Assembly (NCBI GenBank): GCA_947085475.1
Contig: CAMTWP010000009.1
Location: 124-64,123, forward strand
Source of the DNA: an uncultured Novosphingobium sp.
Lineage (GTDB): Bacteria; Pseudomonadota; Alphaproteobacteria; Sphingomonadales; Sphingomonadaceae
DNA length: 64,000 bases
Direction of reading: 5' to 3'
The notes under the pieces: model-generated
What the model saw: only the letters and a program-made list of their open reading frames with translations
Databases searched by the model: none
Told to the model about the DNA's origin: nothing
In this document: in pieces, positions 3,409-55,088 of the stretch
Layout of the letters: the number at the start of each line of letters is the position of its first letter
Position numbering within the stretch: position 1 is the stretch's first letter
Translations under genes and position numbers: made by a program

Positions 3409-4842
3409 ATGGGTAAGGCAACCGGCTTTCTCGAAATCGACCGCAAGGACCGCACTTACGATGCGCCTTCGGAGCGACTGAAGCACTATCGCGAATTCGT
3501 CATCCCGCATGACGCATCGGGGCTGAAAGGTCAGGCGGCGCGCTGCATGAACTGCGGCATTCCGTACTGTCACAACGGCTGTCCGGTGAACAACCAGATC
3601 CCGGACTGGAACCACTTGGTCTATGAGAACGATTGGCGCGAAGCGTTGACCAATCTTCATTCGACCAACAATTTCCCTGAATTCACCGGCCGTATCTGTC
3701 CCGCTCCGTGCGAGGCTGCGTGCACCTTGAACATCGTTGACCAGCCGGTCACGATCAAGTCGATCGAATGCGCGATCGTCGACAAGGGGTGGAAAGAGGG
3801 TTGGATCGAGCCGCAGGTTGCCGCCAAGAAAACGGGTAAGTCGGTCGCTGTTGTCGGTTCTGGCCCCGCAGGCATGGCTGCGGCGCAGCAATTGGCACGC
3901 GCCGGTCACTCGGTCACGGTGTTCGAAAAGAGCGACCGGATCGGTGGCTTGATGCGCTACGGCATTCCTGACTTCAAGATGGAAAAGACGCACATCAACC
4001 GCCGCGCGATGCAGATGGAGGCCGAAGGCGTTCAGTTCCGCACTGGCGAGGAAGTTGGCGTAACCGTCTCATTCGCGTCATTACAGCAAAACTTCGATGC
4101 TGTGGTGCTTTCGGGCGGTGCGGAAGACCCGCGCGGGCTTGGCATTCCCGGCGCGGAACTGCCCAGCGTTCGCATGGCGATGGAATTTCTGACACAGCAG
4201 AACAAGCGCAATGCAGGCGACGATGAATTGCGCGCTGCGCCGCGCGGTTCGTTGCTCGCCACGGGCAAGCATGTTGTTGTCATTGGCGGCGGCGATACTG
4301 GTTCTGACTGTGTTGGCACATCGAACCGCCAAGGCGCGGCTTCGGTCACCCAATTGGAAATCATGCCCAAGCCGCCCGAAAAGGAAGACAAGGCGCTGAG
4401 CTGGCCCAATTGGCCGTTGAAGCTGCGCACGTCGTCGAGCCATGAAGAAGGCTGCGAGCGTGAATTTGCCGTGCTGACCAAGCGCGTGGTTGGCGAAAAC
4501 GACGTCGCTGGCCTCGAATGCGTCCACGTTGAGTGGGTAAATGGCCAGATGCAGGAAGTCGCCGGAAGCGAATTCACGATCAAGGCTGACCTGATCCTGC
4601 TCGCCATGGGCTTTGTCGGTCCGCGTAAACAGGGCCTGATCGAACAGGCTGGCGTTGAGCTTGACCCGCGCGGCAACGTCAAGGGCAATGTGGTTGATTA
4701 TAAGACCAGCGTCGAGAACGTCTTCGCTTGTGGCGATATGCGCCGCGGCCAAAGCCTCGTCGTCTGGGCCATTCGCGAAGGTCGCCAGTGTGCCCGCGCG
4801 GTGGACGAAGCCTTGATGGGTGTCAGCGAATTGCCGCGCTGA
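3409..4842 (+). CDS. gltD: glutamate synthase small subunit
   Basis: 477 aa. Has N-terminal Fe-S Cys clusters ([23 protein letters not shown]) and two dinucleotide folds ([23 protein letters not shown]). Classical position after gltB. Confidence 0.95.
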
Positions 4843-22053: not shown

Positions 22054-22127
22054 TGCCCCGTCGTCTAATGGTAAGACACCGGTTTCTGATACCGTTTATC
22101 GAGGTTCGAGTCCTTGCGGGGCATCCA
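22054..22127 (+). tRNA. tRNA-Gln (anticodon CTG), CCA encoded
   Basis: 7-bp acceptor stem (TGCCCCG/CGGGGCA), anticodon loop TTCTGAT, T-arm CGAGG-TTCGAGT-CCTTG, 3' TCCA. 74 nt. Confidence 0.9.
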
Positions 22128-34471: not shown

Positions 34472-35071
34472 ATGGCTATTATCCTGCCCCCTCTGCCTTA
34501 TGCTGAAGACGCGCTTGCACCAGTCATTTCGGCCATCACCTTGCAAACCCACCACGGCAAACATCACAAAGCCTATGTCGACAAGACCAACGCCGCTATT
34601 GAAGATTCAGACCATGCCAATGCCAGCCTTGAGCAGATCATTGCCGCCGCGCAGGCTAATGGCGACACGAGCCTGTTCAACAATGCAGCGCAAAGCTGGA
34701 ACCACGCCTTTTACTGGAACAGCCTATCGCCCGAAACGTCAGCGCCAACGGGCAATCTGGCCAGTGCCATTGAGGCATCGTTTGGTTCACTTGAGGCACT
34801 GAAGGCCGAACTTCTGGCCCAAGGCACAGCCCATTTTGCATCAGGCTGGGTGTGGCTGCTGGCGCGCGGCGGCAGCCTGGGCGTTGAACAGACACACGAT
34901 GCCGCAACATTTGCCACAGGCGATGCCAAGCCCGTGCTGGTGATCGACTTGTGGGAGCATGCCTATTATCTCGATCACAAGAATGTGCGCCCGGAATACC
35001 TTAAGGGCGTCATCGAGAAGCATCTGAACTGGGAATTTGCTGCTGAAAACTTCAGTCGCGATGGCACGTAG
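34472..35071 (+). CDS. sodB: Fe/Mn superoxide dismutase
   Basis: LPPLPYAEDALAP, HHGKHH and DLWEHAYYLD motifs. Confidence 0.95.
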   Translation: MAIILPPLPYAEDALAPVISAITLQTHHGKHHKAYVDKTNAAIEDSDHANASLEQIIAAAQANGDTSLFNNAAQSWNHAFYWNSLSPETSAPTGNLASAIEASFGSLEALKAELLAQGTAHFASGWVWLLARGGSLGVEQTHDAATFATGDAKPVLVIDLWEHAYYLDHKNVRPEYLKGVIEKHLNWEFAAENFSRDGT

Positions 35072-36391: not shown

Positions 36392-37012
36392 TCAGTTCTG
36401 GTGTCCGTGCAGCACGGTACGGTCCAGCTCGCCCATGATTGCAGTATGAGCAACCGCGTCGGACGTGCTGCGGCGCGGGATCTGACCGGTTTCAATCATC
36501 AACGTTAGCGCGGCCCGCGCACGACCGACACGGCTTTTGATTGTGCCAACTGCGCAGCCACAAATCTTGGCCGCTTCTTCATAGCTGAATCCCCCAGCAC
36601 CCACGAGAAGCAGTGCCTCGCGCCGTTCAGGGGGCAGCGTCAGCAGGGCGCGGTGCATGTCTGATAAATGCATCGGTCCTTCCTGTGCAGCCGGTGCCAC
36701 AAGAATGCGTTCCGCCACGGTTTCATCATAATCTCCGCGGAAGCGATTACGGCGCATATCGGTAAGGTAGGCATTGCGCAAAATGACGAAAGTCCAAGCG
36801 CGCATTGACGTACCGGGTTCAAAGCGTTCTTGTGCAGCCCACGCCTTGAGCAGGGTTTCCTGCACAAGATCATCGGCCAGATCGGGGCGGCCGCACAGAC
36901 CGCGCGCAAAAGCGCGCAGATGCGGAATGACTCCCGTCAATTCGCGTTTGAACGCGATCGGATCAATCGCCGGGCGCGGCGACATGTCTGCCTCAGCCAT
37001 TTGACGGGTCAT
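36392..37012 (-). CDS. ecfG: ECF sigma factor, EcfG type (general stress response)
   Basis: Sigma-70 regions 2 and 4 (DLVQETLLKAW, FSYEEAAKICGCAVGTIKSRV). Overlaps the upstream nepR. Preceded by a GGAAC-N16-CGTT promoter. Confidence 0.88.
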   Translation of the reverse strand: MTRQMAEADMSPRPAIDPIAFKRELTGVIPHLRAFARGLCGRPDLADDLVQETLLKAWAAQERFEPGTSMRAWTFVILRNAYLTDMRRNRFRGDYDETVAERILVAPAAQEGPMHLSDMHRALLTLPPERREALLLVGAGGFSYEEAAKICGCAVGTIKSRVGRARAALTLMIETGQIPRRSTSDAVAHTAIMGELDRTVLHGHQN

Positions 37013-37166
37013 CCAGTTTATCGAGCAACTGGGCGAAGCTATCGGGCAATGGCTCGTCTACGACAGAATCGTATAATCGCTTGAGCCCGTCCGCCCATTC
37101 AGGGGAGCGCGGTTTTGCGCCCTTCCGGTTCTTTTGACCGGCAATCATCGGCTTTTCTTTCGACAT
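36993..37166 (-). CDS. nepR: anti-sigma factor NepR
   Basis: 57 aa with GLKRLYDSVVDEPLPDSFAQLLDKLD, the NepR signature. Sits immediately upstream of, and overlapping, ecfG. Confidence 0.8.
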   Translation of the reverse strand: MSKEKPMIAGQKNRKGAKPRSPEWADGLKRLYDSVVDEPLPDSFAQLLDKLDDPSNG

Positions 37167-37292
37167 TCGCTCTGACAACGCCTCCCCCTCCAGGGCCAAT
37201 CCAAAAACAGACCGCAACGGCGCGGCAGATGCGTTTCCTACACCACTGACACTGTCCAGAAAGAGGAATTGCCAATGGTTCTTCAGATGCGG

Positions 37293-37317
37293 AACGATAT
37301 GCAGCGCCGTCGGTTCC
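37293..37317 (-). promoter_or_regulatory. EcfG-dependent promoter of nepR-ecfG
   Basis: On the minus strand: GGAAC-N16-CGTT (plus strand AACG 37293-37296, GTTCC 37313-37317). Confidence 0.75.
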
Positions 37318-37346: not shown

Positions 37347-39095
37347 TTGCGGCGTGGCCGGTTAAGTGAAAGGAGCGCGACTGTTTCGGACGGGGTCGTG
37401 GGTGTGGGAGGAATGACGCGCGCAATGGAAAAGCTTCTTGCCATGAAGAAGCTGACGCCTCGTTGGTACGAACGCTTTCCGCGTGGTGTGCCGGTGGGCA
37501 TCTTCGTGATGACCATGGCCGTTGCGCTGTTGAGCGTTTTTGCCATCGAAAACGCCGAAGATCAGCGGCAAACCGCCCAGATTGCTCAAACAGCCCAAGC
37601 CGTTGCATCAGGTCTGGAGCGGCGCAGCAACACCAACACCGCCTATTTGCGGTCGAGCGCAGCCTTGTTCGCGACGCAGGAAATCGTAGAAGCGCCGCTG
37701 TTTCGTACTTTTATCAAGCAGTTGCACCTTGAAGGTCGTTATGTCGGGTCGGATGGGATTGGCTGGGCCATGAAGATGGACCGCGCTTCTGTTCCGATTG
37801 TTGAAGCGATCATGCGCGCCGGTACCAAACCGGAATTCGCGGTCCGTCCCAAACCCGTGACAGAACGAACTGCGGTGGTGCCGGTGATGTTTCTTGAACC
37901 GGACTCCACCCGCAACCGCCGCGCCATCGGCTTTGACATGTATTCCGAGGTCACACGCCGCGCGGCAATGGATGCAGCGGAACGCAACGGCCAGCCCACA
38001 GCCACCGGGCGCGTGACACTTGCCCAGGAAGCAACGCCTGATGGACCGGCGGGCTTCCTCGTTTACATGCCCGTGTTTGCGCTTCAGCCGGAAGGGGGGC
38101 GATACAAGCTGCGCGGCTTTGTTTACTCTCCGTTCGATGCACAGACGTTTTTGAAAGCATCCATAGATGCGACGCGCCTCGAAGGGGCGGGCGTGCGGTT
38201 GTACGATATTACGCCCAAGGGCCTAAGCCTTATGGCAGAAGTGGCGCCTGTCGAACAATCCAGTGGCATCGTGCGGCGCGAGGTCGAGATTGCAAGTCAT
38301 CGGTTCATGATCGAAATTGCAGCACCGGCAACCCCAATGTTTTCAACGATGTCGGGCATGACTTTGCTGTTTGGCCTGTTGGTGGCTACGCTTTTGCTGG
38401 TTCTGGCGCGCTTGCTGACACAGCAAGCCGCAGAAGACCGGATTGCGCTGGCGTGGTTCGAGCAACAGTCTTCCATCCGCAATTCACTGACGCGGGAGCT
38501 GAATCATCGCGTCAAGAACACGCTGGCCAATGTGTTGTCGATCATTTCGCTCACCCGTCGCCGCGCGACCACGTTGCCCGAATTTGCCGATAGTCTGGAA
38601 GGCCGCATCCGCGCGCTTTCAGCAACGCATGATCTGCTCACGCAGTCTGATTGGGGCACAACGCCGGTCGCGCTGGTTATCCGGGCAGAGCTTGCGCCCT
38701 ATGCTCAGGATGTGTTGCGCCATTTGACAATGGACGGTCCGGATGTGGAGCTGGCCCCTAATGATGCGCTTTCGCTGGGCCTCGCCGTTCATGAACTGGC
38801 TACCAACGCCGCCAAATATGGCGCGCTCAGCGTCGAGCAGGGCCGCGTTTCGATCCATTGGGAAATCGCTGGTGAGAATCTGGCGCGTGTGGAATGGATC
38901 GAGACCGGTGGTCCGGTGATCGATGCTGAACAAAAGCGCAAGCGCGGCTTTGGCACCGAATTGATCGAGAAGATCGTGGCGCACGAACTGCGCAATCCGG
39001 TCGATTTGCGCTTTGAACCTGAGGGCGTACGCTGCACCCTGTTGATACCGGTGCGCCGCCGCAATAGCTTTACAATGCGGCAAGGCCGCACCTGA
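37347..39095 (+). CDS. CHASE-domain HWE/HisKA2-type sensor histidine kinase (PhyK/Pak-like)
   Basis: TM segment, periplasmic CHASE-like domain (NRRAIGFDMYSEVTRRAAMDAA...GFLVYMPVF), second TM, H-box ELNHRVKNTLANV, N-box HELATNAAKYGA. True start may be ATG 37413 or 37440. Confidence 0.85.
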   Translation: MRRGRLSERSATVSDGVVGVGGMTRAMEKLLAMKKLTPRWYERFPRGVPVGIFVMTMAVALLSVFAIENAEDQRQTAQIAQTAQAVASGLERRSNTNTAYLRSSAALFATQEIVEAPLFRTFIKQLHLEGRYVGSDGIGWAMKMDRASVPIVEAIMRAGTKPEFAVRPKPVTERTAVVPVMFLEPDSTRNRRAIGFDMYSEVTRRAAMDAAERNGQPTATGRVTLAQEATPDGPAGFLVYMPVFALQPEGGRYKLRGFVYSPFDAQTFLKASIDATRLEGAGVRLYDITPKGLSLMAEVAPVEQSSGIVRREVEIASHRFMIEIAAPATPMFSTMSGMTLLFGLLVATLLLVLARLLTQQAAEDRIALAWFEQQSSIRNSLTRELNHRVKNTLANVLSIISLTRRRATTLPEFADSLEGRIRALSATHDLLTQSDWGTTPVALVIRAELAPYAQDVLRHLTMDGPDVELAPNDALSLGLAVHELATNAAKYGALSVEQGRVSIHWEIAGENLARVEWIETGGPVIDAEQKRKRGFGTELIEKIVAHELRNPVDLRFEPEGVRCTLLIPVRRRNSFTMRQGRT

Positions 39096-39129: not shown

Positions 39130-39927
39130 TTAATCGAGCGGGCGGCTGGATCCAAAGAACAGGGCCTGACTGATCGCGGTGCGCACAGTCTGTTCCTGAA
39201 ACGGCTTGGTCACCAAATAAGTCGGTTCTGGCCTATCGCCGGTGAGCAGGCGCTCAGGGTAGGCGGTGATGAAGATGACCGGCACGGAACCCATTTGCAG
39301 AATGTCCTCCACAGCATCGAGGCCTGAGCTGCCATCAGCCAACTGGATGTCAGCCAATACCAGACCCGGTTTTTCACGGGACACGATTTCGAGGGCCTGA
39401 GTCCGCGTTGCGGCCATGCCGCAAACATCGTGACCGAGTGATCTGACCAGATCTTCAAGCTGCATCGAAATGAGCGGCTCATCTTCGATGATCAAAACCG
39501 ATGTTGCAGATTCGCGGTCGATCTCTGCAATGGCATCCTGCACGAGGCCTTCGACATCATCGGGTTCACGTTCCATGATATAGGCCGCGTCATTGATGCT
39601 GAAATCTTCCAGCGTGGTTAGCAACAATGCCTGGCGGTTGGCCGGAGTCATCGCAGCAAGCCGTTCCTGTGCTGCTGCTTCATGCTGGCCAAGCGAGCCT
39701 GATGAGCGGTCAACCGTATCGACATAAGCGGTCGACCACACACGATTGAAAGCGTGATAGAGTTGTGGCCGGCCTTCACCGATCAATTCCCGCAAAGCCT
39801 TATCGGCCAATGCAGCTTCAAGCGTCGCGCGGACAAATGAGTCGCCCGCGGTCTGGCTGCCCGTTAATGCGCGCGCATAGCGCCGAAGATAAGGCAGTTG
39901 ATTGGCAACTTTGGCACCAAGAGACAT
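39130..39927 (-). CDS. phyR: anti-anti-sigma response regulator PhyR
   Basis: Sigma-like N-terminal domain (LPYLRRYARALTG) fused to a receiver domain (LIIEDEPLI...LADIQLADG...TKPF). ATG at 39927. Confidence 0.9.
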   Translation of the reverse strand: MSLGAKVANQLPYLRRYARALTGSQTAGDSFVRATLEAALADKALRELIGEGRPQLYHAFNRVWSTAYVDTVDRSSGSLGQHEAAAQERLAAMTPANRQALLLTTLEDFSINDAAYIMEREPDDVEGLVQDAIAEIDRESATSVLIIEDEPLISMQLEDLVRSLGHDVCGMAATRTQALEIVSREKPGLVLADIQLADGSSGLDAVEDILQMGSVPVIFITAYPERLLTGDRPEPTYLVTKPFQEQTVRTAISQALFFGSSRPLD

Positions 39928-40027: not shown

Positions 40028-40405
40028 CTAGTTCACTGCAATCAGGTCCGCCCATTCCGCCAAAACTTCCGACGATACCGGTTTGCGGAATTGTGCCGCA
40101 AATTCATAACCTTCGGGGGTCGCATCACGTTCAAATCCGGAACTGATTGCCACCGCGCAGCCCATTTGATGTAATTGCAGGGCAAGGTCGAGCGAGATGC
40201 CATCGGGTAATTGCAAATCGAGCAGTGCAGCGGTCGGCCGGCGCTTCTCGATCAAATTCCGCGCACCTGCCAGAGTTGCGGCGACCATCACATCGAACCC
40301 GCGCGTTTTCAAAGCGTCCTCGATGGCCATAGCAACCAGCACGCTGTCTTCCACTACCAGAATGAGCGGGGTTATTGTTTTTGTATTCAACACGTTCGCG
40401 CTCAC
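40028..40405 (-). CDS. single-domain response regulator (SdrG-like position next to phyR)
   Basis: 125 aa, receiver only (ILVVEDS...LLDLQLPDG...RKP). Confidence 0.8.
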   Translation of the reverse strand: MSANVLNTKTITPLILVVEDSVLVAMAIEDALKTRGFDVMVAATLAGARNLIEKRRPTAALLDLQLPDGISLDLALQLHQMGCAVAISSGFERDATPEGYEFAAQFRKPVSSEVLAEWADLIAVN

Positions 40406-40534
40406 CCCTATATGCCGTACAGGTGATACGGCACATTGTGAGAACCAACGCTGTCATTTGACATAGCGAAAGTTCAGCTACCGTGTTGCGATTTGAGCGA
40501 CGGATCAGAACCGACGTCAGAGTGTGGGGAAAAT

Positions 40535-41305
40535 ATGGCGCGAGACGATGAGAATGCCGGGATTATCGGCGATACACAAGTGCGCTGCGAAACCTGCCCG
40601 CTGATCGCGTGCGATGGTTTGCGGCAGCCGCCTGCTGATTTGCGCCTTTGGATCGCGGCTTTCCGGCAGGGCGAAGCGCGGTATGTTCGCGGTGAACAGG
40701 TTTTTGATCAGGGTGCCCGGCCTAAGCATTTGTATACAGTGCTGAGCGGTGTGCTGATGCGTACACGTTTGCTGGAAGATGGCCGGCGTCAGGTTATCAA
40801 TTTCATGTTCCCTGGTGATTTCATCGGGCTTCAAGCTGCACTTGATGGTGAAATGAGCCACGCGGTAGAGGCGGTAACTTCGGTCACCCTGTGTGCGTTC
40901 TCGCGCGATCGCTTTTTCGACATGGTCGCCAGCCAGCCGCGCCTTGCGTTCGATATGACCTGGCTTTCCGCACATGAAGAAGCCGCTCTTGAAGAGCACA
41001 TCGTATCGCTAGGGCAGCGTAACGCGCGCGAGAGGATGGCAGCTTTGGCCGTGTTCCTCGTGCAGCGTGCACTGGATACCGGTCTTGCGCCTGACGGGAC
41101 GCTGACCATTACCGTTACGCAAGGGCAGATTGCCGATATGCTGGGGCTGTCGCTGGTTCATACCAACCGCACTTTGCAAACTTTGCGCAGGCTTCAACTC
41201 GTCGATTGGACAATCAACGCGATCCGCATTCCCAATATGGAAGCGGCAAGAGAGTTTGCCGGAATTGACAGCAATTCAGTTGGTCTGCCACGCCCCTACA
41301 TCTAA
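40535..41305 (+). CDS. Crp/Fnr family transcriptional regulator with N-terminal Cys cluster
   Basis: cNMP-binding-like beta-roll and a C-terminal HTH (GQIADMLGLSLVHTNRTLQTLRR). Cysteines at C18, C21, C26 and C120. ATG at 40535 with GGGGA RBS; a TTG alternative lies at 40493. Confidence 0.8.
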   Translation: MARDDENAGIIGDTQVRCETCPLIACDGLRQPPADLRLWIAAFRQGEARYVRGEQVFDQGARPKHLYTVLSGVLMRTRLLEDGRRQVINFMFPGDFIGLQAALDGEMSHAVEAVTSVTLCAFSRDRFFDMVASQPRLAFDMTWLSAHEEAALEEHIVSLGQRNARERMAALAVFLVQRALDTGLAPDGTLTITVTQGQIADMLGLSLVHTNRTLQTLRRLQLVDWTINAIRIPNMEAAREFAGIDSNSVGLPRPYI

Positions 41306-41357
41306 AGAAAATTTCCTAGCCAATGAAATTAAAGGATAAAAAATTTTCGAGAGCTTG

Positions 41358-41382
41358 GGAACTGCAAACCGGGATGCTCGTT
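41358..41382 (+). promoter_or_regulatory. EcfG-type promoter in an intergenic region
   Basis: GGAAC (41358-41362), N16, CGTT (41379-41382). No plausible protein gene lies downstream. Confidence 0.7.
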
Positions 41383-41387
41383 TTATC

Positions 41388-41474
41388 CATGTCACCACCG
41401 AGACCCCCCCTCCCGTCCAAGCGGTGGTGATACGATCCCGAAGGTCCTCGTCGGAAACGACGGGGACCTTTTTT
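41388..41474 (+). ncRNA. candidate EcfG-dependent small RNA (GsrN-like)
   Basis: Starts just after the promoter. 8-bp stem CACCACCG/CGGTGGTG holds a 21-nt loop containing CCCCCCCTCCCG, followed by a terminator (GGTCCTCGTCG-GAAA-CGACGGGGACC-TTTTTT). 5' end is approximate. Confidence 0.55.
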
Positions 41475-41482
41475 GAGGTCGA

Positions 41483-41526
41483 GCGTCCCGGCTGCGCCTC
41501 ATGGTGGCGCAGCCGGGACGCTTTTT
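41483..41526 (+). terminator. second, 16-bp perfect-stem terminator hairpin
   Basis: GCGTCCCGGCTGCGCC-N7-GGCGCAGCCGGGACGC followed by TTTTT. Lies between the sRNA candidate and the convergent response-regulator gene. Confidence 0.75.
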
Positions 41527-41532
41527 CATTTC

Positions 41533-41991
41533 TTAGCCAAAATGCGACAGCGCGCCGCGGATTCGTCCGAACAGGCCGGCAGGTTTGTGGCGATAGACCA
41601 ACGCGATCAGTTCTTCGGTGCGGAACGGCTTTGCCAGAACATGACCGAGCATCGCGGCAGAAGGCGGGATCGATTCAGGCGTTCCGGTGGTAAACACGAC
41701 AAGCGGCCGCGCTTCGCCCAATTGCATCGCCAGTTCGGCCAAAGCCCAGCCATCGTCGCGGTCAGCCAGATGCACGTCCAGCACCAAGATGGACGGCACC
41801 GCGCGCCCCAGATGCTCCATCGCTTCGGCTATACTGGCGCAAGTTACGACCGGGTCAGCCCCTGCATCTGTCAATGCCTCGGCAATATCGAGCGCGATCA
41901 GTCCGTCATCCTCAACCACAAGCGCATGGCCCAGTGCTCTCCGTCTTGGAGGAGGCTTGGGTTTGGCCCGGCCGTGGTCATCGTTGGTCAA
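41533..41991 (-). CDS. single-domain response regulator
   Basis: 152 aa. Receiver fold (ALVVEDDGLIA...VLDVHLADRDDG...AKPF) with a basic N-terminal tail. Confidence 0.8.
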   Translation of the reverse strand: MTNDDHGRAKPKPPPRRRALGHALVVEDDGLIALDIAEALTDAGADPVVTCASIAEAMEHLGRAVPSILVLDVHLADRDDGWALAELAMQLGEARPLVVFTTGTPESIPPSAAMLGHVLAKPFRTEELIALVYRHKPAGLFGRIRGALSHFG

Positions 41992-42073: not shown

Positions 42074-43231
42074 TCAGAGCGGCTTGTCGTATATCACGTA
42101 AGACTTGTTCACTGTGCTGTTGATTGCCTCGGCAATGGCATTCATTCCTTGATTGTCTTCGAGGATCCATCCGATTTCACCGCGCGTTGCACCATATTCG
42201 CGGATGGCGTTGCGGCGAATGTATTCGATCATCATGAATGCCAACTGGCTGGCCATGCGCGATGATTGCAGCCGCTTACGGACACCCATCAGCGGCACAC
42301 GCATGGTCCGCACTTTGGGCTTGCGCAGCCATAGCAGCAGCTTGGCCCAATTGAACGGGAGCAGCTTTCCGCCCATCGGTTTGATCACTTCATTAAGGTC
42401 TGGCACGGTCATCATGAAGGCCACCGGCTCGCCTTCATATTCGGCGATCATGATCAGATCTTCGCGCACGATCGGCTTGAACTTTTTGCCCGCGTATTTG
42501 ATCTCGGCATCGCTGAACGGCACAAACCCCCAGTTTTCCGACCATGCATCGTTCAAGATGTCGAGGATCAGCGCCGCCTCTTCGTCGAATTTTGATCTAT
42601 CGACATTGCGAATGCGGATCTTCGCATTCTTTTCGCCCGATTGGATGATGCGCTGGATAAGGGGTGGGAATTCGTTGCGAACGTCCAGTTCGTATGTGTT
42701 CAGCGTCTTGGCTGGCAGGTATCCCAGCGCCTCGATATAATGGCGATAACGTTCGGGCTGATGGCCCATCATCACCGTCGGCGGGTGATCAAAGCCTTTG
42801 ACCAACTGGCCCGGCTCTTCCCAGATAGACATCGAAAGCGGGGCCAGCACCCGCGTCATGCCCTTTTGCCGCAGCCACTCTTCGGCATGCGCGATTAACG
42901 CTTGCGCCACGGGTTCGTCCTCGGCTTCAAGCATACCCCAGTTGCCAGTGCCCGGACCCATGCCCTGTGATGCATCCATCGCGACAGCCAGATGATCGAT
43001 ATGCGCCGAGATGCGGCCCACGACGGCTCCCGCGCGCCTGGCAAGGAACAATTGCACGTCGGCATGATCGAAAAACGGGTTCTTGCCCGGCGTAATCAGC
43101 TCCTCGGCTTCCATGCGCAGTGGCGGCACCCACGACGAATCGGATGCGTTCAGGCGATAGGCTAGATCGAGAAAGGCCTTTCGGTCAGCCTTGCCGGAAA
43201 CGGGAGTGATGATTACTTCACTAGGAGCCAC
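42074..43231 (-). CDS. large GNAT-fold acyltransferase-like protein of unknown substrate
   Basis: Conserved-looking IITPVSGKADRKAF...WVPPL N-terminus and a C-terminal GWILEDNQGMN segment. GTG 43231 is preferred; the maximal ORF reaches 43360, leaving only 23 nt to the divergent gene. Confidence 0.7.
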   Translation of the reverse strand: MAPSEVIITPVSGKADRKAFLDLAYRLNASDSSWVPPLRMEAEELITPGKNPFFDHADVQLFLARRAGAVVGRISAHIDHLAVAMDASQGMGPGTGNWGMLEAEDEPVAQALIAHAEEWLRQKGMTRVLAPLSMSIWEEPGQLVKGFDHPPTVMMGHQPERYRHYIEALGYLPAKTLNTYELDVRNEFPPLIQRIIQSGEKNAKIRIRNVDRSKFDEEAALILDILNDAWSENWGFVPFSDAEIKYAGKKFKPIVREDLIMIAEYEGEPVAFMMTVPDLNEVIKPMGGKLLPFNWAKLLLWLRKPKVRTMRVPLMGVRKRLQSSRMASQLAFMMIEYIRRNAIREYGATRGEIGWILEDNQGMNAIAEAINSTVNKSYVIYDKPL

Positions 43232-43383
43232 GTTCTTGCCTTTGTTTGCGGGTAAGTGGGTTTCGTCGGCGAACTGCGGTTCAATTCGGCACATTGTCAA
43301 GCCACAGGACGCAGGTGGGAGCATCTTGGGCGAAATTGACCGGCAAAAGCTGGGTCGCAAGGGTTAAACTGGAAATTCACGGC

Positions 43384-52588: not shown

Positions 52589-52611
52589 GCGTATTTTCTG
52601 ACACTATGCCG

Positions 52612-52652
52612 ACGGCCCTTTCCGCCATGCGCGGGAAGGGCCGTTTGCTTTT
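52612..52652 (+). terminator. probable Rho-independent terminator
   Basis: ACGGCCCTTTCC...GGAAGGGCCGT stem followed by TTGCTTTT. Confidence 0.6.
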
Positions 52653-55014: not shown

Positions 55015-55088
55015 GGCCCGATGGCGGAGTGGTTACGTACCGGATTGCAAATCCGTTTACGCCGGTTCGATTCCGGCTCGGGCCTCCA
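55015..55088 (+). tRNA. tRNA-Cys (anticodon GCA), CCA encoded
   Basis: Acceptor stem GGCCCGA/TCGGGCC, anticodon loop TTGCAAA, T-arm CCGGTTCGATTCCGG. Near-colinear with E. coli tRNA-Cys as I recall it. Confidence 0.9.

Follow-up and report, generated by a model that had tools for sequence, protein, structure and literature searches.

A predicted EcfG-dependent small RNA with a C-rich loop at the general stress response locus of Novosphingobium and Erythrobacteraceae

To our knowledge, GsrN of Caulobacter is the sole characterised post-transcriptional arm of the alphaproteobacterial general stress response (GSR), and as far as we know BLAST detects it in Caulobacteraceae only. The locus studied here belongs to a 64-kb window (the whole stretch of Novosphingobium DNA that was analysed) and raises the question of whether such an arm is also encoded in another lineage. 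A sequence-only reading of the window had proposed an unannotated, GsrN-like small RNA (sRNA) under EcfG control in a gene-free interval beside the stress-response genes. It had stated that GsrN exposes a 5' C-rich loop and that its homologues often lie near the GSR locus, and both points agree with the published work (PMC5869019). GsrN is sigma-T dependent and activates katG and osrP by pairing of its 5' C-rich loop with their G-rich leaders (PMC5869019, 10.1101/344820), and gsrN homologues are usually found near the GSR locus (Tien et al. 2018, PMC5869019). For Erythrobacter litoralis, the same authors report 'no apparent gsrN-like gene' (PMC5869019).

We wanted to define the surroundings of the candidate. 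By its closest protein matches, the window belongs to Novosphingobium. The genes found around it are given below.

36392-37012, minus strand: ecfG (sigma-70 r2/r4 domains, Pfam)
36993-37166, minus strand: nepR (PF18557)
37347-39095, plus strand: CHASE-HWE histidine kinase gene (Pfam)
39130-39927, minus strand: phyR (E = 6.5e-81 to the Caulobacter PhyR structure 3n0r)
40028-40405, minus strand: single-domain receiver gene (Pfam)
40493-41305, plus strand: Crp/Fnr regulator gene (Pfam)
41390-41474, plus strand: candidate RNA (our own analysis)
41533-41991, minus strand: second single-domain receiver gene (Pfam)
42074-43360, minus strand: gene of a GNAT-like protein (Pfam)

The host interval is indeed free of genes and corresponds to a 227-nt gap (41306-41532) between the Crp/Fnr gene and the response-regulator gene of the receiver type. 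Inside it, the following elements were recognised.

41340-41347, plus strand: A/T-rich block AAAATTTT, about 10-18 nt 5' of the -35 element
41358-41362, plus strand: -35 element GGAAC of an EcfG (ECF15)-type promoter (sequence, orthologues)
41379-41382, plus strand: -10 element CGTT, 16-nt spacer after the -35 element (41358-41382 overall)
41390-41474, plus strand: predicted sRNA transcript of about 84-85 nt (covariance model R1, fold)
41390-41432, plus strand: 5' hairpin, 11-bp stem around a C-rich loop (fold, RNAalifold, covariation)
41401-41421, plus strand: C-rich loop of 21 nt, AGACCCCCCCTCCCGTCCAAG = AGACCCCCCCUCCCGUCCAAG (sequence; unpaired in all folds)
41433-41442, plus strand: single-stranded linker CGAUCCCGAA, carrying a conserved GAUCCC
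41443-41474, plus strand: intrinsic terminator, 11-bp G+C-rich stem, GAAA loop and U6 tail (fold, covariation)
41481-41528, plus strand: second hairpin of 18 bp (41481-41523) and T-run (terminator scan)

The GGAAC-N16-CGTT promoter proposed at 41358-41382 can be read directly in the sequence, and the A/T-rich block in front of it is possibly an UP-like element. The 8-bp hairpin with a 21-nt loop that had been described (41393-41400 with 41422-41429) turned out to be the core of a longer stem, in which UGUCACCACCG (41390-41400) pairs with CGGUGGUGAUA (41422-41432). The apical part of the loop, CCCCCCUCCC (41405-41414), includes the anti-Shine-Dalgarno (anti-SD) core CCUCC and is possibly closed by a 3-bp GAC/GUC mini-helix. 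The terminator consists of the hairpin GGTCCTCGTCG-GAAA-CGACGGGGACC at 41443-41468 (5' arm in the RNA, GGUCCUCGUCG), with T6 in the DNA and U6 in the RNA at 41469-41474. It is supported by folding and covariation; a simple terminator scan missed it and listed the second hairpin (41481-41523) alone. This second hairpin is very stable and fills the space between the sRNA terminator, which it follows directly, and the stop codon of the convergent receiver gene, and many orthologous Novosphingobium loci carry a comparable one 3' of the sRNA. It may or may not belong to the sRNA gene: it could act as a back-up terminator in tandem with the first, or be shared (bidirectional) with the convergent response-regulator gene.

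The 85-nt RNA folds with -43.3 kcal/mol (z = -5.05), none of 200 shuffles being equally stable, and its MFE and centroid structures are concordant for the 5' hairpin. The covariance model R1 finds a single full copy in the whole window, at 41388-41474 (92.6 bits, E = 2e-20). Two further R1 matches, at window positions 52593-52647 and in Brevundimonas (L164 2875-2960, the 3' end of phyR), were rejected as second copies and are gene-end terminators. The promoter pattern GGAAC-N16-CGTT occurs twice in the 64-kb window against 0.59 expected, and at least two occurrences were found in 11 of 100 shuffles, meaning that the count by itself is not significant. Its second copy (37317-37293, minus strand) stands in front of nepR-ecfG. 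Reading GGAAC-N17-GTTCC, the nepR-ecfG promoter (37291-37317) is a palindrome, and the CHASE-HWE kinase gene (37347-39095), transcribed divergently, lies on its other side. A possibly bidirectional EcfG site has been described between nepR-ecfG and gsrP in E. litoralis (10.1101/641647), and this arrangement matches that of the palindromic promoter of the window (10.1101/641647).

A 13-codon open reading frame (MSPPRPPLPSKRW) is present inside the window copy, from an ATG at 41389, near the predicted 5' end, to a TGA at 41430. Its reading as a small protein was rejected, since the ATG is missing from most orthologues and the frame varies with the length of the C-run (6, 7 or 8). This indicates that the element is not a coding gene.

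The distribution of the element was studied in three samples of loci. Sample 1 (L001-L024) was fetched through the Crp protein alone and covers Novosphingobium, Qipengyuania, Croceicoccus, Alteripontixanthobacter and Pseudopontixanthobacter. The element was found directly 3' of the crp stop codon in 23 of these 24 loci, the remaining one ending with its contig, and the block was composed of the GGAAC promoter, an identical loop (23/23) and a terminator differing in sequence. Sample 2 (L025-L143) was obtained by a scan for the exact loop core, with one genome per species, and yielded at least 119 loci. Selection by an exact pattern biases the apparent invariance of the loop in L025-L143, a bias from which the Crp- and PhyR-anchored samples are free. 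Among the matches listed, every genome has one copy and belongs to Novosphingobium or to genera of the Erythrobacteraceae (Erythrobacter, Qipengyuania, Porphyrobacter, Citromicrobium, Croceicoccus, Tsuneonella, Pelagerythrobacter, Altererythrobacter and others). Sphingomonas, Sphingobium and Sphingopyxis account for none of the matches listed, in a scan that did not sample these genera specifically, and the genome sample is one without E. litoralis itself. Two MAG contigs labelled 'Marinomonas sp.' (L066) and 'Synechococcus sp.' (L081) bear an Erythrobacteraceae-type sRNA and are probably binning contaminants. Sample 3 (L202-L280) was fetched through the PhyR receiver domain alone. There, R1 found the element at the same phyR-divergent position in every Erythrobacteraceae/Novosphingobium locus and found nothing in Caulobacteraceae, Parvibaculum, Pelagibius, Algimonas, Parasphingorhabdus and two other Sphingomonadales MAGs. 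Neither an R1 match nor a candidate made of an EcfG promoter and a C-run was detected in L252, L273 (Parasphingorhabdus) and L274. A second Novosphingobium clade, which includes N. kalidii, N. barchaimii, N. malaysiense and strain BW1, has seven diverged copies (L242-L247 and L249; about 4220-4410, minus strand) that R1 scores at 38-47 bits. When distinct contigs are counted from the matches listed and the anchored loci, the carriers of the element amount to about 150 Novosphingobium/Erythrobacteraceae species.

To look at the linkage of the RNA to the stress-response genes, the 119 pattern-derived loci among the matches listed were oriented on the RNA and searched with the proteins of the window. 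PhyR was encoded upstream on the opposite strand in 103 of the 119 listed (median distance 247 nt, minimum 68 nt), indicating that divergent transcription of phyR and the RNA is the usual arrangement. The kinase gene, nepR and ecfG were found farther upstream in the loci listed. The site had thus been correctly placed beside the stress-response locus, given the identity of ecfG, nepR, the kinase gene and phyR in the window and this divergent neighbourhood in most listed loci. Downstream, on the opposite strand, the second receiver gene was present in 65 of the loci listed and the GNAT-like gene in 101. In the lineage of the window (38 of the loci listed), crp and sometimes also a receiver gene are inserted between phyR and the RNA, and the promoter of the RNA is retained with or without the crp insertion. 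We also observed an Fe/Mn superoxide dismutase gene (34472-35071), which lies past ecfG at a distance of about 1.3 kb; of the 119 loci listed, 13 have a relative of this gene inside the 8-kb locus.

The anatomy of the gene was compared in 117 non-redundant copies. Every copy has kept GGAAC (117/117), 115 have a 16-nt spacer, and in 111 the core begins 15 nt from the -10 element. The -10 element reads CATT in 93 copies, CGTT in 16 (window included), CGTA in five and AATT in two. As CATT prevails, recognition by EcfG is less certain outside the window's own clade; in several Erythrobacter-group loci the nepR promoter reads CGTT while the sRNA -10 element is CATT in most orthologues. The upstream block remains at least 70% A+T across the 117 orthologues, with the consensus AAaa.ttt. 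Conservation starts at T[G/A]TCACC, 8-9 nt 3' of the -10 element, and the Rfam model of GsrN begins at about the same distance after its CGTT. On the basis of this onset and this distance, the 5' end of the RNA would lie at 41390/41391.

Both helices were recovered in the RNAalifold consensus. In a covariance-model alignment of 58 sequences, 97.8% of the cells were paired, against 89.3% after shuffling and 30-51% when the partners were slid. Both-sided, compensatory changes were seen in 16 of 24 pairs, namely the 13 of 13 terminator pairs and three pairs of the 5' stem, so that the terminator first proposed at 41443-41474 is supported by compensatory changes as well as by folding. In the 5' stem, G-C, G-U and A-U exchanges were found among orthologues, and three loci (L255, L207 and L233) have rebuilt this stem from other bases, fully compensated and with the C-rich loop intact. 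Every variant folded gave the same two hairpins with the C-rich segment unpaired. The loop follows the near-invariant consensus AGACCCCCC(C)UCCCGUCCAAG. In the sample fetched through PhyR only, it is exactly of this form in 21 of 35 copies, most others being one to three bases off and the rest C-rich. The second Novosphingobium clade has a rearranged and still C-rich loop, e.g. GCUCCCCCCACCCCCCCGCAAC (CUCCCCC-A-CCCCCC-GCAA), and even there the GAUCCC linker is kept; this linker may offer a second site for pairing or a site for a protein or an RNase. Most copies of that clade show CUCAAAGUUU instead of the U-tract after the terminator stem, which leaves it in doubt how these transcripts would be terminated, or if they are terminated at this point at all. 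Altogether, elements conserved as a unit of fixed spacing by phyR in about 150 genomes, with both helices covarying, have the look expected of an EcfG-driven, trans-acting sRNA gene. The general traits of trans-encoded sRNA genes are found as well: an own promoter and terminator, an intergenic position, covarying helices and the lack of a conserved open reading frame.

We then asked whether this gene is GsrN. The gene is unannotated. In the Rfam search that the sequence-only reading had called for, no family was found at gathering thresholds in the region or in two orthologous loci, and two tRNA genes (22054-22124 and 55015-55085) were the window's only matches at this level. Sub-threshold matches to CC2171, ctRNA, ncS54 and Pxr in permissive scans were rejected as terminator-driven. 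For GsrN itself, we used a pattern made of the EcfG promoter and of the loop rebuilt from the target sites of Tien et al. 2018. It gave 58 matches, 50 of them in Caulobacter/Brevundimonas/Phenylobacterium-type loci, the other eight being chance matches in unrelated taxa. Genuine GsrN loci are scored at 88-103 bits by RF01529 ('CC3552'), and since Rfam assigns the recovered loci to this family, RF01529 is GsrN. In a permissive scan of 141 nt of the window (41340-41480; gathering score 50 bits), RF01529 gave no match at E <= 10. In the other direction, R1 gave 13-19.5 bits, full-length, on short-form copies of GsrN and nothing on the long form. These short two-hairpin variants, of about 70 nt, were observed in Phenylobacterium and two MAGs (L168 3378-3485, L181 4611-4720 and L184 1420-1529). 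They have an EcfG promoter, the loop ACGCCCCCCGACUU and a terminator, without the internal hairpin of Caulobacter GsrN; they were undetected by RF01529 at gathering score and no phyR was found within 8 kb of them.

The likeness to GsrN (Caulobacter crescentus CCNA_R0081; RF01529) includes, as far as the sequence tells, the sigma-EcfG/sigma-T-type promoter GGAAC-N16-CGTT, with the reservation that the -10 element is CATT in 93/117 orthologues. It extends to a 5' hairpin showing a run of 6-7 cytosines (here 41401-41421, unpaired, on a covarying stem), to an end at an intrinsic terminator, and to a single copy usually located beside phyR/nepR/ecfG, from which in the window it is separated by crp and a receiver gene. 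The two-hairpin layout of the short forms (L168, L181 and L184) is identical to that of the window RNA. Contrarily, no sequence or covariance-model similarity was detectable, and the loops, GACGCCCCCCGACUUGA in GsrN and AGACCCCCCCUCCCGUCCAAG in the window, have the C-run alone in common. Long-form GsrN, of about 105 nt, has one more hairpin inside and undergoes Hfq-influenced processing that yields a stable 5' isoform; the window RNA is about 85 nt with two hairpins. Moreover, gsrN follows phyR on the same strand at a distance of about 450-750 nt, whereas the window RNA lies upstream and divergent, on the other side of phyR, and the hosts are Caulobacteraceae for the former and Novosphingobium/Erythrobacteraceae for the latter. 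The label GsrN-like therefore stands for architecture, location and, at the level of sequence, regulation, but the RNA has neither an RF01529 score nor the GsrN loop GACGCCCCCCGACUUGA. Could it all the same be a true orthologue of Caulobacter GsrN, both coming from one ancestral GSR sRNA that diverged beyond recognition? The common promoter type, the exposed run of 6-7 C in the 5' hairpin loop, the linkage to phyR, the identical layout of the short forms and their weak full-length R1 scores (13-19.5 bits) speak for it. We consider this unlikely, given that RF01529 is silent on the window at E <= 10, that the loops are unlike outside the C-run, that gsrN is downstream of phyR on the same strand while the window RNA is divergent and upstream, and that R1 scores an RNA of the CC1840 family higher than any GsrN.

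By model score in both directions, the closest family is that of CC1840 (RF01521), both values being sub-threshold. RF01521 aligns full-length with window positions 41386-41469 at 17.4 bits (E = 1.8; gathering 50), which does not make the RNA a member, and R1 gives 30.9 bits on a genuine RF01521 member, L181 5630-5716 (minus strand), itself scored at 53.5 bits by RF01521. The likeness consists of a 5' hairpin loop with CCCGUCC...AAG by a CGG stem, followed by a linker and a terminator. The L181 member differs in that its upstream region shows no EcfG-type promoter. The CC1840-family loop, CUCCCGUCCCUCGAAG, resembles that of the window RNA, and the resemblance could be a convergence of C-rich loops. 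The Caulobacter member of the family is probably CCNA_R0044, which a table of PMC5869019 describes as a 'complex medium expressed sRNA'. The CC1840-family sRNAs of L181 (5630-5716, minus strand) and L184 (432-522) lie about 1 kb from a short-form gsrN. The alpha-r14/cuckoo/CcsR RNAs (RF02344) are also alphaproteobacterial stress-induced sRNAs with C/U-rich, anti-SD-like hairpin loops, and alpha-r14 aligns weakly and full-length with the window (19.7 bits, below the gathering score of 58.8, hence no membership). The cuckoo family, known from Rhizobiales and Rhodobacterales, has two to four adjacent hairpins each with CCUCCUCCC and, in Rhodobacter, an RpoHI/HII promoter (PMC4615179), whereas the window RNA has one C-rich hairpin and a terminator, the motif CCCCCCCUCCC and an EcfG-type promoter. 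Literature searches for such an sRNA in Novosphingobium, Erythrobacter and Sphingomonas found none. SuhB of Sphingopyxis granuli, linked to stress in a 2025 preprint, was rejected as a counterpart, as it is LysR-regulated, largely independent of the GSR regulon and without tie to the window RNA. Since no Rfam family reaches its gathering score and the comparisons with GsrN, CC1840 and cuckoo all failed, we regard the element as a new sequence family. From its sequence, it is a previously uncatalogued and genuine sRNA gene family, GsrN-like in regulation, architecture and location and not a demonstrable homologue of GsrN.

What would this RNA do? We judge it likely that it is an EcfG-dependent sRNA of the GSR locus whose C-rich loop pairs with G-rich or SD-like sites in mRNAs; its transcription, its dependence on EcfG and its action by base pairing are what we infer from this analysis. 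Under stress, phosphorylated PhyR would capture NepR and free sigma-EcfG, and RNA polymerase with EcfG would initiate from the GGAAC-N16-CGTT promoter at about 41390/41391 and stop at the intrinsic terminator at about 41474. The RNA is predicted to fold into a 5' hairpin showing about 20 C-rich nucleotides (core CCCCCC(C)UCCC), a GAUCCC linker and a U-tailed terminator hairpin. The loop (41401-41421), with its CCUCC anti-SD core, would be the seed for target pairing and would bind G-tracts or GGGAGG-like stretches located in leaders or ribosome-binding sites of mRNAs. Such pairing would alter translation or stability of the targets, and the GSR would gain a level of post-transcriptional control like the one that GsrN provides in Caulobacter. 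Candidate sites for a chaperone (e.g. Hfq), a nuclease or a second seed are the terminator with its U tail and the conserved single-stranded linker GAUCCC.

Targets were looked for in two ways. In a duplex scan of the whole window, the loop performed no better than the reversed-loop control (-34 kcal/mol for the control and -33 kcal/mol for the loop). The leaders of the phyR, ecfG, kinase, receiver, GNAT-like and desaturase genes across orthologous loci showed no excess of complementarity over controls. A G-rich element, CCCUGGAGGGGGAGGCG (GGAGGGGGAGG), was observed at 37180-37207 (minus strand). It precedes the nepR ATG by 14 nt and shows complementarity to the sRNA loop over 8 nt. The element is kept in the closest Novosphingobium clade only (7/83 loci), which makes it at best a clade-specific feedback site.

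A different main action, namely binding or titrating a protein (a poly-C/ssRNA-binding protein, a chaperone or a ribonuclease) with mRNA pairing being secondary, would fit the loop and GAUCCC linker, which are almost invariant across genera and stricter than a seed with many targets needs, as well as the lack of a target signal in the window and leader scans. We hold it to be quite improbable, because the neighbourhood suggests no protein partner and the C-rich apical loops of GsrN, cuckoo/CcsR and RNAIII pair with G-rich or SD sequences (PMC5869019, PMC4615179). In addition, the second Novosphingobium clade reorders the loop, which stays C-rich, and this is easier to reconcile with pairing to G-runs than with a specific protein site. 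Hardly credible is a DNA-level element without functional RNA (a binding site of a regulator, or a block that punctuates phyR and the adjoining genes as promoter or terminator), as the location in the regulatory region adjoining phyR might suggest, since 16/24 pairs show compensatory changes where slid controls are 30-51% paired, G-U pairs are tolerated on the sRNA strand, promoter and U-tract terminator frame the block at fixed distance in about 150 genomes, and the block keeps its place relative to its own promoter when crp is inserted between it and phyR.

An EcfG-dependent sRNA acting through its C-rich loop would mean that the GSR has a post-transcriptional arm also in a lineage that was believed to lack one, and Rfam would gain a missing family. 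It would also offer a natural comparison with GsrN, as the two RNAs may have targets in common (catalase, osmotic-stress proteins or the regulators themselves) or the design alone. The existing E. litoralis mutants and the RNA-seq set GSE126532 make the sRNA directly testable. Tentatively, and with considerable doubt, C-rich-loop sRNAs could have arisen independently at the GSR locus, as GsrN in Caulobacterales and as the window RNA in the Erythrobacter/Novosphingobium lineage. If this is true, the near-invariant loop might act broadly on GGGAGG-type ribosome-binding sites, which could include feedback on nepR-ecfG, and an EcfG-driven riboregulator directed against G-tracts or SD sequences would be a module that recurs in the GSR under selection.
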